Positions 3,069-8,832 of a DNA stretch of 24,197 bases are shown one piece after another. The DNA is from a virus. Taxonomy: Duplodnaviria; Caudoviricetes. Each line of letters opens with the position of its first letter. Positions within the stretch are counted from its first letter, which is position 1. Made by a program: the position numbers and the translations under genes. The stretch covers positions 1 through 24,197 of the IMG/VR virus record IMGVR_UViG_3300044645_000477; one strand, written 5' to 3'. The notes under the pieces were generated by a model. That model was not told the origin of the DNA. It was given only the letters and a program-made list of their open reading frames with translations, and made no database searches.

Positions 3069-3085
3069 TTTTTTACATATCTTTG
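3056..3085 (+). promoter_or_regulatory. Bacteroidota sigma-A type promoter
   Basis: TTTG (3056-59), 18-nt spacer containing GTATTGA, then TATCTTTG (3078-85). Confidence 0.75.
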
Positions 3086-3110
3086 AACCATTAACCAACA
3101 CACTCACTTT

Positions 3111-3272
3111 ATGGAATACACCTTCCGAACGAATTGGTCTCAAGATGGGGCCGCACAAATGGTGGAATTTCTGCAACACCGCATCGAGGCACTTGCCTCA
3201 CGCAACGAGTTCCTCGAAGCAGAAAACGAAGTATTAAAACGAACCTTAATTAACGAATTGCAAAATGGCTAA
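3111..3272 (+). CDS. small coiled-coil protein (53 aa, not in ORF track)
   Basis: Translated by hand: MEYTFRTNWSQDGAAQMVEFLQHRIEALASRNEFLEAENEVLKRTLINELQNG; first ATG after the promoter; overlaps the next start. Confidence 0.75.
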   Translation: MEYTFRTNWSQDGAAQMVEFLQHRIEALASRNEFLEAENEVLKRTLINELQNG

Positions 3273-3708
3273 AATCACCAGCATCACCCCAACAGGACAG
3301 TGGAACGAGTTTTTCAAGTTTGAAGTACGCTTCGACGATGGCGACTTCGGAACGACTTTCGCAAAGTCCACAACTCCCCCTTACGCAGTAGGTGACGACG
3401 TTACCTACACCAAGAACGAGAAGGGAACCATCAAGATTCAAAAAGCAGGATTCCAAAACAACTACACCGCTCCGTTTGCAAAGAGCGCAGCGGGTAACGA
3501 CGACCGTGGTAAGTCCATTATTCGTCAAGTAGCTTTGAAGTCTGCGGTTGAAATGTCTGCTGCCTACGTTTCACAAGGAGCAACGATTCCAGTAGATAAG
3601 ATTTTTGAGCTTGCCGATAAGTTTAACGCTTGGATGCTCAACGAGCAGAAGGGCGCAAGCCACGAGGAACACTTCGCTCCACGTGTAGAAGAAAGCAGTC
3701 CTTTTTAG
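3265..3708 (+). CDS. putative single-stranded DNA-binding protein
   Basis: OB-fold-like beta N-terminus, IIRQVALKSA helix, acidic tail ending SPF; upstream of the helicase. Confidence 0.65.
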   Translation: MAKITSITPTGQWNEFFKFEVRFDDGDFGTTFAKSTTPPYAVGDDVTYTKNEKGTIKIQKAGFQNNYTAPFAKSAAGNDDRGKSIIRQVALKSAVEMSAAYVSQGATIPVDKIFELADKFNAWMLNEQKGASHEEHFAPRVEESSPF

Positions 3709-3732
3709 TGTGTGTGTTTTTTAGGACTGCTG

Positions 3733-3758
3733 GCCCCTCTTCGGAGGGGCTTTTTTTT
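3733..3758 (+). terminator. intrinsic terminator
   Basis: GCCCCTC-ttcg-GAGGGGC followed by T8. Confidence 0.92.
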
Positions 3759-3772
3759 GCTTTGAGTTTTTT

Positions 3773-3796
3773 GTATTGATATTTTGTTTACTTTTG
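3773..3796 (+). promoter_or_regulatory. Bacteroidota-type promoter for the helicase operon
   Basis: GTATTGA (3773-79), 9 nt, then TACTTTTG (3789-96), just after a terminator; -33 spacing is non-canonical. Confidence 0.65.
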
Positions 3797-3810
3797 ACCA
3801 AACACACAGA

Positions 3811-4752
3811 ATGAGACACCCAGACATCCTAACCAACGAAGCGGTACTGCCGTTTCTGGAACGAGCAAGGGCGGGCAAGTATTTCGATACTGGCAAGCTC
3901 GGCAATCCCAAGATAGACGAATACCTACGTTTCAAAGACGGGGAGTTTATCGTTGTAACTGGCCACGCCAACGTGGGTAAGACGCATACGCTTATTTACC
4001 TTATGCTTATGCAATCCCAGAACTACGAGAAGAAGTGGTTGGTCTATTCAGCAGAAAACGAGGTACACTCACTCAAAAGAAAAATGATTGAGTTTCTTGC
4101 TTGCGCCCCGATTCAACAGATACCAGAACACGTAATGTATCGCCACCTTGATTTTGTGAACGAATACTTTACTTTCATTGACGGAAACAAGTTGTACGAT
4201 GCCTTTGGCCTGTTGCGGGTTATGGAGGAAATCAAAGAGGAGTGGGATTATACTGGCGCACTTATTGACCCGTACAACTCACTATCTACCGACCAAAAGA
4301 AACTTGGGAAGACAGGAATGCACGAATACCACTACGAGGTGGCCTCGGCTATTCGGGTGTTCGCCCACAAGAACAACGTAACAACAGTCGTAAACACACA
4401 CCCAGTAACCGAAGCAATGCGTAGAACCTTTCCGCAGGGCCATCAATACGCAGGGCTTCCAATGCCCCCAATGACTTCGGACATCGAAGGAGGCGGCAAG
4501 TGGGGCAACCGTGCCGACTGTGTACTGGTGGTTCACCGAATGGCCCAACACCCGACCGACTGGTTATTTACCGAGCTACACGTGAGAAAAACAAAGGAAA
4601 TGGAAACAGGCGGACGACCTACTCCGCTGGGTGACCCAATCCGAATGGAATCTATCCGAGGAAATGTTGGATTTAAGATAGACGGATATAACTTGCTGGA
4701 CGCTCCGACACCTGTACAAATTACCTTAAATGACACCGATGCACCATTCTGA
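3811..4752 (+). CDS. SF4 (DnaB/T7 gp4-like) replicative helicase
   Basis: Walker A GHANVGKT, catalytic SAE, Walker B LIDPYN, HP motif, DIEGG..W.NRAD; ATG 3811 follows the promoter. Confidence 0.88.
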   Translation: MRHPDILTNEAVLPFLERARAGKYFDTGKLGNPKIDEYLRFKDGEFIVVTGHANVGKTHTLIYLMLMQSQNYEKKWLVYSAENEVHSLKRKMIEFLACAPIQQIPEHVMYRHLDFVNEYFTFIDGNKLYDAFGLLRVMEEIKEEWDYTGALIDPYNSLSTDQKKLGKTGMHEYHYEVASAIRVFAHKNNVTTVVNTHPVTEAMRRTFPQGHQYAGLPMPPMTSDIEGGGKWGNRADCVLVVHRMAQHPTDWLFTELHVRKTKEMETGGRPTPLGDPIRMESIRGNVGFKIDGYNLLDAPTPVQITLNDTDAPF

Positions 4753-5654: not shown

Positions 5655-5799
5655 TATCGGATTCTACCCAATTTACGGAGTTTTACTTGGCTTCAACTGG
5701 TCTAAAGTAGAACTGGACGACATCGAAGTTCATCAGATACAGATACCCTTACTTATCTTTATCCTCGAAATCGAATGGGAGAACTACTTGAACGATTAG
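5644..5799 (+). CDS. hypothetical protein (51 aa, not in ORF track)
   Basis: Translated by hand: MNFNIGFYPIYGVLLGFNWSKVELDDIEVHQIQIPLLIFILEIEWENYLND; fills the gap between two genes exactly. Confidence 0.7.
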   Translation: MNFNIGFYPIYGVLLGFNWSKVELDDIEVHQIQIPLLIFILEIEWENYLND

Positions 5800-6302
5800 C
5801 AGAACGCCACGCCGACTGGATTCGGATGGCTAAAAGTTTTGGTGCGGACTATGATACCGCCCAAGACCTCGTTCAAGATATGTACATAAGATTGTACACG
5901 TATGTAAAGGACTTTGAGAAGATTCGATATGGAGAAGAACCCAACACGTTTTTCGTTTATATTACACTTCGGAATCTTTACTTGCGCCAGCAGCAACAGG
6001 CGGCTAAATTCGTATCTATTGAAGAGTTCGACGATATAGACGAAATGCACGACCTCGATTCTGACTTGGCCTTTACGGAATTAGCCGAAGCAGTAAAGGT
6101 CGAGATAGCAAAATGGGACTGGTACGATAACAAGCTGTTTGTTCTGTATCACGATTCTAACGTATCAATGCGCAAGTTGTCTAACGACACCAAAATAAGT
6201 TTACGTTCAATTTATCATACTTTGAAAAATGGCAGAGAACGAATTAAAAGCAACTGCGAAGCCGAGTACCAAACGTGGTCGAAAGCCAAAAGGTCTCGGT
6301 GA
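5775..6302 (+). CDS. RNA polymerase sigma factor, ECF/sigma-70-like
   Basis: Region-2-like AQDLVQDMYIRL..FVYITLRNLYL and region-4-like HTH SMRKLSNDTKISLRSIYHTL. Confidence 0.82.
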   Translation: MGELLERLAERHADWIRMAKSFGADYDTAQDLVQDMYIRLYTYVKDFEKIRYGEEPNTFFVYITLRNLYLRQQQQAAKFVSIEEFDDIDEMHDLDSDLAFTELAEAVKVEIAKWDWYDNKLFVLYHDSNVSMRKLSNDTKISLRSIYHTLKNGRERIKSNCEAEYQTWSKAKRSR

Positions 6303-7033: not shown

Positions 7034-7154
7034 ATCAAAAGAAGACCAGAAGGAGTTTATCAATCGTTGCGTCACAGACGATACAATGATAAAAGAATAC
7101 CCACGGCAAGACCAGCGATTAGCGGTATGCTACACGCAATGGAAAAATAAATAG
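7014..7154 (+). CDS. small phage protein (46 aa, not in ORF track)
   Basis: Translated by hand: MPLPTPKSKEDQKEFINRCVTDDTMIKEYPRQDQRLAVCYTQWKNK; ends at the terminator. Confidence 0.8.
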   Translation: MPLPTPKSKEDQKEFINRCVTDDTMIKEYPRQDQRLAVCYTQWKNK

Positions 7155-7175
7155 TCCTTCGGGGCTATTTTTTTT
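7151..7175 (+). terminator. intrinsic terminator
   Basis: ATAGTCC-ttcg-GGGCTAT followed by a T run. Confidence 0.88.
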
Positions 7176-7184
7176 GTCTCAATG

Positions 7185-7213
7185 TTGTATGTATTAAAAA
7201 TTTTATATCTTTG
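7185..7213 (+). promoter_or_regulatory. Bacteroidota sigma-A type promoter
   Basis: TTG (7185-87), 18-nt spacer containing GTATTAA, then TATCTTTG (7206-13). Confidence 0.78.
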
Positions 7214-7236
7214 GTGAACAATTAAACACACACACA

Positions 7237-7365
7237 ATGAAAAACAAACTGATTGACCTATTCCAAGACGTGACCGTTTGGCTCGCTTGGTACCTGATTG
7301 TAAGCACTGCGTTGCTTGCTATTTTTATTGTTCCATCCTACATTGCACAGGTGCTATGCAAGTGA
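7237..7365 (+). CDS. small single-pass membrane protein (42 aa, not in ORF track)
   Basis: Translated by hand: MKNKLIDLFQDVTVWLAWYLIVSTALLAIFIVPSYIAQVLCK; first ATG after the promoter. Confidence 0.72.
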   Translation: MKNKLIDLFQDVTVWLAWYLIVSTALLAIFIVPSYIAQVLCK

Positions 7366-7630: not shown

Positions 7631-8056
7631 ATGACCGAGCTTGAAATGCGTTTATACGAGGAATGTATAAAGAAAATGCCAAGCATTCTTTCGGAACTTA
7701 AAAGCAAAAAATACAATGGACGTGTTGCGGTTCCTATTTATGTAGACGGCTGTATTGATACGCTTGTATTTGACGCAGACAAAATGGAGCCGCTTTACCT
7801 TGAATACCGTTACGGCCTTGGTGAGGCGGAAGATGGATTTGGCTCGTCCGCTTACTTCGATGATTTTGAACTTCGTAAAATTGAAATTAAAATGACACTG
7901 ACCGACCTATTTGTAAAGATTGCATCCGAACACGGAGCAAGAATCGACCAAAAAGATATTGACTTCTTAAAGCGACTTGAAGAATCCGACAAGGAAATAA
8001 ACTTCCAGCGTGGATTTAACGAGGCGTTGCAACTGGCATTAAACGCTAAACAATGA
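7631..8056 (+). CDS. hypothetical protein (possible internal start at 7892)
   Basis: 141-aa ORF; ATGA overlap with the exonuclease gene. Confidence 0.7.
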   Translation: MTELEMRLYEECIKKMPSILSELKSKKYNGRVAVPIYVDGCIDTLVFDADKMEPLYLEYRYGLGEAEDGFGSSAYFDDFELRKIEIKMTLTDLFVKIASEHGARIDQKDIDFLKRLEESDKEINFQRGFNEALQLALNAKQ

Positions 8057-8832
8057 AGATAATTGAACTATTAGACGGAAGCACTTGGGATAAGGCAACC
8101 GTCAAGGAGAAGATGATGGACGACTCCTTCTACTATGGATACCTTTCCAGGGCCGCTCTTTCGTCCTCGGCTTGTAAACTCTTGCTCCAATCGCCAAAGA
8201 CGTACCACTACGTTACCAAGTACGGCCAAGACGAATCGGATGCCTTCTCGGTGGGCCGATTGGTTCACTTGATGGCCTTGGAACCGCACCGAGTCGAGGA
8301 GTACGATATTATTGACGTACAGAGCAAGAATACGAATATATGGAAGGAGGCCAAAGCAAGAGGCGGCCAAATAATTACAAAGAAGGAATACAACGAAGCA
8401 AGACGCATCGCAGATGCCCTGCTACGCAACGAATCCGTCCTCGGCTATATTCAAGGTTGCCAATTTGAGGTTCCTGCTATTGGAACGATAGAGGGCGTAC
8501 CTTTTCGAGCAAAAGCCGACATATTAGGAGACAACTTTATTGCAGACCTAAAAACCACTACCGACTTACGTGCGTTTCCTTATTCAGCAAAGAAGTACGG
8601 TTACGACTTGCAGGCGTATATCTACACTCGGCTATTTGGAGTTCCGATTGACAAGTTTATATTTATTGCCATCGACAAGGCGAGTTTAGACGTGGGCATT
8701 TACACAGTTAGCCCTGCGTTTATTGAAGAAGGCGAGAAGAAGTTGCAAGAGGCGATTTCCATATACAAGGAGTTCTTTATGGGAGTGGACGAGCCAGAGT
8801 TAGACAACTACACAATCGTTGGGCAATTATGA
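8053..8832 (+). CDS. RecE/exonuclease VIII-like PD-(D/E)XK exonuclease (DUF3799-type)
   Basis: LSSS..K.LLQSP, GRLVH..ALEP, RAKAD, DLKTT, YGYDLQA.IY motifs. Confidence 0.88.
   Translation: MKIIELLDGSTWDKATVKEKMMDDSFYYGYLSRAALSSSACKLLLQSPKTYHYVTKYGQDESDAFSVGRLVHLMALEPHRVEEYDIIDVQSKNTNIWKEAKARGGQIITKKEYNEARRIADALLRNESVLGYIQGCQFEVPAIGTIEGVPFRAKADILGDNFIADLKTTTDLRAFPYSAKKYGYDLQAYIYTRLFGVPIDKFIFIAIDKASLDVGIYTVSPAFIEEGEKKLQEAISIYKEFFMGVDEPELDNYTIVGQL

Follow-up and report, generated by a model that had tools for sequence, protein, structure and literature searches.

The 3′ end of an ssb-like message in a tailed phage is complementary to the translation starts of three early operons, its own included. 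The complementary segments lie at start codons, and in three sequence types of related phages the 3′ end and its targets have changed in concert. The antisense seed is held in the loop of a predicted hairpin that spans the ssb stop codon, and this hairpin with its leader complementarity is a real, selected feature. Read from the sequences, the 3′ end of the message would accumulate and its loop would pair with the starts of its own operon, of the helicase and of the exonuclease operon, thereby blocking the loading of 30S subunits. We place the probability of this reading at about 0.7.

Phage Setting and the ssb-Like Gene

The window is the whole stretch of DNA analyzed, 24,197 nucleotides of an IMG/VR virus record (IMGVR_UViG_3300044645_000477). 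It represents most of a tailed-phage genome (the longest related contigs measure 28–31 kb), with every assigned gene on the plus strand, and encodes an endolysin, a RusA-like resolvase, a DnaB-like helicase, an exonuclease VIII-like nuclease, a methylase, a terminase and a protease. The promoter boxes follow the TAnnTTTG consensus of Bacteroidota (PMC7366714; PMC6847099), and the closest helicases of cultured phages are those of Maribacter and Cellulophaga phages, at 26–36% identity; together these point to a host in this phylum. A 30.6-kb contig of lineage C (L300) that resembles a binned phage was left out of the host assignment. Within the helicase operon, a 175-aa ORF (5775–6302) has a weak match to sigma-70 region 2 (E 2.9e-5) and is a possible phage sigma factor. 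A gene-free AT-rich tract at 1940–2100, about 1.7 kb 5′ of the ssb stop, repeats TTAG and TAAC words (agttaagttagttattagttaagtaagttaactaactag); tracts of this kind also occur in lineages B and F, described below, and are candidate replication origins.

The gene that ends in the hairpin appears to be SSB-like, as judged from a protein model and from its C-terminus. The model (mean pLDDT 72) has a beta domain at residues 1–63 that gives Z 5–6.2 and an rmsd of about 3 against PriB, SSB and RPA, a middling score (the best values are Z 6.2 for PriB and 6.1 for SSB). An acidic C-terminal tail ending in PF is the SSB tail consensus; the tail of this protein is acidic and ends in PF, and the gene adjoins that of the replicative helicase. 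Among 42 homologues P146 is invariant and F147 nearly so, while distant relatives end in tails of the DLPF or DDLPF type. The gene has no Pfam match and no Foldseek match in the PDB at E ≤ 0.001, and a database search found no ssb-like gene in any cultured phage. Its start is overlapped by the stop of the 53-aa ORF at the head of the operon, and the two are probably translationally coupled.

A Predicted Hairpin Over the Stop Codon and Its Putative Targets

The features that make up the proposed circuit are collected in Table 1, in which the transcription starts rest on a spacing of 4–5 nt between box and start (PMC6847099).

Table 1. Promoters, genes, targets and RNA elements of the ssb, helicase and exonuclease operons (window positions; folds and transcription starts are predicted).
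Feature	Position	Strand	Details
Promoter P1, Bacteroidota −7 box TATCTTTG	3078..3085	+	inferred transcription start about 3090–3091
Target 1, leader of first ssb-operon gene, AACACACTCACT	3097..3108	+	11/12, 2 nt before ATG 3111
53-aa ORF, first gene of ssb operon	3111..3272	+	no significant family
SSB-like gene, 147 aa	3265..3708	+	OB-fold-like domain 1–63, C-terminal ...PF tail
Presenting hairpin	3694..3731	+	9-bp stem, 20-nt loop, directly before terminator
5′ arm of hairpin, AGCAGUCCU	3694..3702	+	codons for last ssb residues
Loop of hairpin	3703..3722	+	20 nt, holds stop codon and GU run
Antisense seed in loop, AGTGTGTGTGTTTT (as RNA AGUGUGUGUGUUUU)	3707..3720	+	predicted unpaired probability 0.93
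3′ arm of hairpin, AGGACUGCU	3723..3731	+	pairs with AGCAGUCCU
Intrinsic terminator	3732..3758	+	8-bp stem, UUCG loop, U tract
Promoter P2, −7 box TACTTTTG	3789..3796	+	inferred transcription start about 3801–3802
Target 2, helicase leader, AAACACACA	3800..3808	+	9/9, 2 nt before ATG 3811
DnaB-like helicase	3811..4752	+	phrog_18375, E 1.8e-38
Terminator closing helicase operon	7149..7170	+	
Promoter P3, −7 box TATCTTTG	7206..7213	+	
Target 3, leader of first exonuclease-operon gene (7237–7365), AAACACACACAC	7224..7235	+	12/12, 1 nt before ATG 7237
Exonuclease VIII-like PD-(D/E)XK nuclease, P3 operon	8053..8832	+	

The seed lies at the 3′ end of the ssb mRNA and shares the intrinsic terminator of the operon, a feature of 3′-UTR-derived autoregulatory sRNAs. 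Positions 3685–3762 fold at −34.4 kcal/mol (z −5.2; none of 200 shuffles was equally stable), a figure that includes the terminator. The original prediction had named a GU repeat near the ssb stop and its complements in three leaders, and all four sequences are present at the positions in Table 1 with the match counts claimed for them. It described the repeat as a UTR element; the place is right, but the first two letters are the AG of the stop codon TAG (3706–3708). The seed had likewise been taken for single-stranded, and it is mostly unpaired in the predicted fold, held in a hairpin loop and not as a free single strand. The presenting hairpin, the coding character of its 5′ arm and the complementary internal starts of lineage C had been overlooked.

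A TAnnTTTG box (3078, 3789, 7206), itself preceded by a T-rich tract, stands before each target leader, and the leaders are predicted to be nearly unstructured. Counted on both strands, AAACACACA occurs four times against 0.39 expected, and none of 100 shuffles reached four; AACACACACACT with one mismatch occurs three times against 0.23 expected, again a count seen in none of 100 shuffles. The fourth AAACACACA is found at 4392–4400, inside the helicase coding sequence (V-N-T-H) and not at a start codon, and is kept in lineage A. Ranking of targets across the genome was a check suggested with the original prediction; within the window it gave a divided answer. With the opening costs of both RNAs counted, targets 3, 1 and 2 rank first, second and third of 46 start regions (−17.2, −13.6 and −10.6 kcal/mol; the next has −9.8 and the median is −5.1), whereas by plain duplex energy, a naive and noisy ranking, target 3 is first of 8,024 windows and targets 1 and 2 fall outside the top 8. 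The seed shares its strand with the targets, from which it is separated by 90 nt to 3.5 kb, and P3 lies past two terminators. The duplexes are short and A/U-rich; the first 1–2 bases of target 2 may fall 5′ of the inferred P2 start, and the helicase duplex of the window would be only 7–8 bp on a P2 transcript.

Concerted Change of Loop and Leaders

The comparison covered 270 redundant loci with an ssb match and a stop codon, the window included, which were sorted by the letters after the stop into lineages A (41), B (67) and C (142) and 20 others. Leaders were chosen by promoter box and position, not by complementarity. The loops of the three lineages (UAGUGUGUGUGUUU in A, UUUUAGGUGUUUCA in B and UUCUGAUUGGUUU in C) are entirely different sequences. 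Lineage A leaders have AC runs in all three positions (own operon, helicase and exonuclease operon); in lineage B, P1 and P3 share AACACCUAAAAC and the helicase has AUGAAACACC; and lineage C has AAAACCAAUCAG at all three operons. Mean duplex energies are −12.4 to −18.8 kcal/mol with the tail of the own lineage and −4.2 to −12.3 kcal/mol with that of another, and of the 110 distinct leaders, 107 find their best partner in the tail of their own lineage. The three misses are an inserted-gene leader in A, an A helicase leader that ties with B, and L062. Relatives had been put forward as a check on the original prediction, and they bear it out: each of the three loop sequences has its matching leaders, the operons concerned are the same three, and this covariation supports pairing of the ssb mRNA tail with its own leader and with those of the helicase and exonuclease operons. 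Because the loci are highly redundant, the independent events number about two seed switches and several stem changes.

Exceptions are few. At L062 (4110–4900) a promoter, leader and first ORF of lineage A are joined to an ssb gene and tail of lineage B, with a mismatched P1 target; this locus may be a recombinant or an assembly chimera. In three loci of the L033 type the promoter-proximal leader is non-complementary. The target after the terminator is present in 41/41 A, 66/66 B and 136/137 C loci with enough sequence, and L238 has the hairpin and lacks the downstream target. This target persists where another gene replaces the helicase (L008, L015, L018, L074) and where about 150 nt with a tRNA-like element are inserted (L038, L048, L063, L067). 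Where a gene has been inserted in first place in the P1, P2 or P3 operon (L008, L015, L018, L074, L005), it retains a complementary leader, and in some such loci so does the displaced gene, which suggests insertion at the leader repeat.

The lineage B loop is read in two overlapping registers, one by AAACACCUAAAAC at P1 and P3, the other by AUGAAACACC at the helicase start; it is the union of both target types, whose common core is only 7 nt. The B helicase start lies 4 nt after the −7 box and, given the 4–5 nt spacing from box to transcription start (PMC6847099), its message is probably leaderless. An ssb start encoding MPK is found in 67/67 lineage B loci and pairs with two G-U wobbles, which is weak evidence since this start is also common in the hairpin-less lineage F. 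Inner variants of the targets are too few to reveal a wobble bias.

In lineage C a perfect complement of at least 8 nt is found at the first gene of P1 (68/68), at the promoter-less start of ssb itself (71/71), at the helicase (62/66) and at the exonuclease start (24/43); the exonuclease's own start is complementary in 0/11 lineage A copies. Only 7 of 90 ORF families in C have a complement in half their copies, all of them in the early region. The same level is reached by 5/61 families in A and 3/67 in B; A runs account for some of these, and the start picker overlooked the helicase start of B. In 49 of 52 contexts the complement at the C helicase begins 3–5 nt past the −7 box, with variable bases before it. 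Longer leaders in C keep an upstream A run (48/48 at ssb), a point that is not decisive because such a run is also a generic Flavobacterium signal. A start-proximity test with 9-mers was used only to locate internal sites; its control is poor, as non-cognate tails also match plus-strand start regions (74/127 B, 76/154 C). An in-frame target word, ACCAAUC, lies inside ssb 80–40 nt before the stop in 18 of the 142 lineage C loci and could pair with the loop in cis.

Lineage E (seven loci) carries the C seed in a wholly different stem (GAGGUGCC/GGCACCU), with 3–6 complementary start regions per locus. No fourth seed was found by a pattern scan for a terminator with a PF-stop; among the matches listed, at least 110, 104 belong to A, B or C and six are unrelated.

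Could the complementarity be an accident of composition, in which low-complexity A/C-rich leaders are favored for translation and the GU run is an unrelated microsatellite? A/C-rich leaders do occur in outgroups without the hairpin, and ACA motifs enhance translation in Salmonella (PMC3879156), but the loop is not a microsatellite in B, C or E and still tracks the leaders in each lineage. Moreover, C-type start motifs number 4.3–4.8 per 10 kb in C and E against 0–0.4 elsewhere. Already contradicted by the covariation, chance is scarcely credible.

Concerted change could also be expected of a double-stranded DNA operator that follows the specificity of a phage regulator, with a copy at each of three early promoters and a further, inverted copy where ssb ends. 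Operators are known to change in concert between immunity groups, most of the A and B sites adjoin promoters, and the weak sigma-70 region 2 match noted above is a further point in its favor. However, the motif is also present at promoter-less internal starts, and the B targets share the 7-nt core only while the loop unites both of them. The inverted copy always stands in the loop of a hairpin, the two arms of which change in step. Among the 41 ORFs scanned with Pfam, none matches an integrase or repressor family (about 5 kb of genome lies beyond the window). An operator is highly improbable, and pairing between RNAs is the preferred reading.

Folding of the 3′ End and the Question of Strand

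Folded one sequence at a time, 66 of 66 distinct tails are predicted to form the hairpin, with seed unpaired probabilities of 0.93, 0.66 and 0.75 in lineages A, B and C. RNAalifold, applied to 48 C tails and to 16 A and B tails, returned the terminator only and missed the first hairpin, the stems being out of register; per-sequence folds and an arm-swap energy test were used in its place. In this test the own arms average −14.3, against −5.2 to −9.9 for the arms of other lineages, and within C the own arms beat 10,000 of 10,000 permutations.

The evidence for strand is modest, since G-U pairs in the arms are few (23/580) and the plus strand, which folds better in 48 of 63 tails, does so by only about 1 kcal/mol in A–C; the minus strand is better in the other 15. 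It is here that a minus-strand decoy has to be weighed. An antisense RNA, or single-stranded DNA at the fork, would show the leader motif in its loop and titrate a leader-binding protein, e.g., the OB-fold protein itself. SSB proteins can regulate themselves by binding mRNA, as T4 gp32 does, and the gene has a product with an OB-fold-like domain. Such a decoy would fit the near-equal folding of the minus strand, yet most tails prefer the plus strand, the terminator after the element is a plus-strand one, no minus-strand −7 box points into the element, and a protein site would not need the two registers of lineage B. We regard a decoy as very unlikely and continue with the plus-strand RNA.

No conserved internal promoter for a separate sRNA was found, the best −7 box being present in 6/41, 9/67 and 11/142 loci of A, B and C. 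Four RNA runs (X1–X4) contain 5–10% of the sequence words and yielded only short contigs at low depth, which gave no indication of RNA ends, strand or level. A tRNA-like element lies between hairpin and terminator in 13 of the 67 lineage B loci (L038, L048, L063, L067, L285). That of L048 (10476–10596) matches Rfam RF00005 at 44.2 bits, with no call by ARAGORN. Processing of the inserted element could define where the ssb message ends.

Outgroups and History

A quick helicase tree of 48 rows places A, B, C and E on one branch (SH-aLRT 99), with A and B as sisters (83); support for the inner nodes is weak (82, 83). Outside this branch are lineages D, F and O, which have no hairpin, and among 35 outgroup loci no recurring tail-to-leader complement was found. 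Most simply, the hairpin would have been gained once, with the C/E seed, and the seed then replaced twice. The original prediction had counted leaders kept without the tail, and without covariation, as evidence against itself. Hairpin-less outgroups show that pattern in part, with a single A/C-rich leader: lineage F has AACACAC(T/A) before the P1-equivalent start in 17/27 loci, and L109, L112 and L114 have AACCAAT leaders at promoter-proximal starts. Within the hairpin lineages the leaders covary with the tail, and the outgroup leaders make it probable that the leaders came first. In Flavobacterium johnsoniae adenines at −3, −6, −12 and −13 matter for initiation (PMC6847099). The leaders were probably unstructured initiation signals at first, to which the antisense hairpin was added later, binding their evolution to its own.

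Two further arrangements were seen in outgroups. In lineage F (L310–L336) a C run (AAAACCCCC), present in several of the ssb leaders, is complementary to the 3′ strand of the terminator (GGGGUUUU); L331 and L332 combine AAAAUCCCC with GGGGAUUUU, and L333 and others do not fit. In L123–L126 the ssb-like stop is followed by a long hairpin of 15 bp, U-rich in its interior, and then by a gene that has an AAGGAG site; no recurring complement to this hairpin was found at start sites.

Relation to Known Antisense Systems

The closest parallels are OppZ and CarZ of Vibrio cholerae, which derive from the 3′ end of an operon message and, by pairing with the transcript they come from, inhibit translation and give negative feedback (PMC7398697), as would the phage element, which likewise has conserved complementarity to the initiation region of its own operon. 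OppZ and CarZ are RNase E products that were studied with Hfq and act on their own operon (PMC7398697), whereas the phage seed sits in a hairpin loop over a stop codon and is directed at two further operons. Bacteroides species are described as having no obvious Hfq or ProQ (PMC7366714). In the icaR mRNA of Staphylococcus aureus a 3′-UTR motif is also complementary to the initiation region of the same mRNA, but this is an anti-Shine-Dalgarno motif with one target (PMC3868564), while the phage system has no Shine-Dalgarno sequence, a lineage-specific seed and 3–7 targets. Antisense autoregulation from a 3′ end is thus already known from OppZ/CarZ and icaR; the phage element stands out by an unusually clear natural compensation.

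In CopA of R1 and RNA I of ColE1, which control plasmid copy number, a hairpin loop sets specificity. The phage element resembles them in that the loop sequence would set specificity and a replication gene is among the putative targets. CopA and RNA I covary with their single target automatically because they are encoded opposite it, while the phage seed and targets are separate and needed separate mutations. A cis-encoded antisense RNA of the CopA, RNA I or OOP type was rejected, as seed and targets are on the same strand in separate places.

The C4 RNAs of phages P1 and P7 differ by compensatory changes. C4 is a phage RNA made from a larger transcript, with variable loops that pair with phage mRNAs; it folds into three stem-loops, is processed by RNase P and maintains lysogeny (PMC5320573), whereas the present element has one presenting hairpin and is directed at replication and early operons. 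Membership of the C4 antisense RNA family was rejected on the single presenting hairpin and the lack of an Rfam match; cmscan of the window and four loci at gathering thresholds gave no family for the element, the only match being the tRNA-like one in L048. GcvB offers a likeness of another kind, a G/U-rich seed that silences an A/C-rich enhancer 5′ of the start codons of several mRNAs, but it is a stand-alone host sRNA with a conserved seed (PMC3879156), while the phage seed is part of an mRNA tail and has been replaced twice. No description of the element was found in the literature searched, which included part of a 2025 review of phage sRNAs (PMC12197685) and lay mostly outside subscription papers. 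None of the three seeds occurs in six of the supplement files of PMC10690425, and the unnamed candidates of that study may still include the hairpin.

Proposed Mechanism

Firing of P1 would yield an ssb message whose stable, doubly structured 3′ end accumulates, which would introduce a delay. Its loop would then pair as RNA with the starts of the first genes of the three early operons, and the duplex would cover positions −1 to −14, where adenines drive Flavobacterium initiation, or the AUG itself, causing repression. This action would be in trans, given targets as far as 3.5–4.5 kb downstream. The ssb gene of the window would be reached through its coupling to ORF 3111–3272, and that of lineage C would be hit directly. 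The outcome would be negative feedback and a delayed shut-off of early genes, with the ssb transcript or a fragment of it as a self-limiting switch. Ribosomes that terminate on the ssb message would open the hairpin, since its loop includes the stop codon and its 5′ arm belongs to the coding sequence; untranslated or cleaved molecules may therefore be more active, which is speculative.

The same pairing could have a different outcome. It might alter mRNA stability, act on transcription (cleavage, premature termination, 5′-end protection), stimulate translation, or work mainly in cis, either by 5′–3′ pairing in the ssb message or by read-through into the helicase leader. The sign of regulation cannot be read from a comparison of sequences, and the complement at P2 starts at the inferred transcription start. 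There is precedent in that OppZ also triggers Rho-dependent termination (PMC7398697) and pairing in icaR makes an RNase III substrate (PMC3868564). Effects tied to 5′ ends are countered by the complementary internal ssb and exonuclease starts of lineage C, which are far from any 5′ end, and stimulation by leaders that, being nearly unstructured by prediction, present no inhibitory fold to open. Against action in cis, P3 is past two terminators, and under read-through the bases 5′ of the P2 start could pair and yet vary. These other outcomes are unlikely, and repression of initiation in trans is preferred.

Implications for Phage Gene Control

A wider role is possible, although we put it forward tentatively. 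The ssb message would act on several targets as a riboregulator that needs no chaperone, setting the time at which the early phase ends and limiting replication. Its seed would be a lineage code, by which each phage group silences the early messages of its own kin only. The two seed replacements would then mark escape from RNA-based superinfection exclusion between co-infecting phages, and each would have required a new match between the seed and at least three separate targets.

The three natural, orthogonal sets of seed and leaders could serve as compact translation switches for Bacteroidota. They amount to a natural compensatory-mutation experiment for a trans-acting RNA, in which one seed and at least three distant targets were replaced together twice, and such concerted replacement is rarely visible for bacterial sRNAs. 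In a phylum without Shine-Dalgarno initiation and with no obvious Hfq, the finding points to a small phage without an evident repressor that would shut off its early and replication genes by RNA alone.
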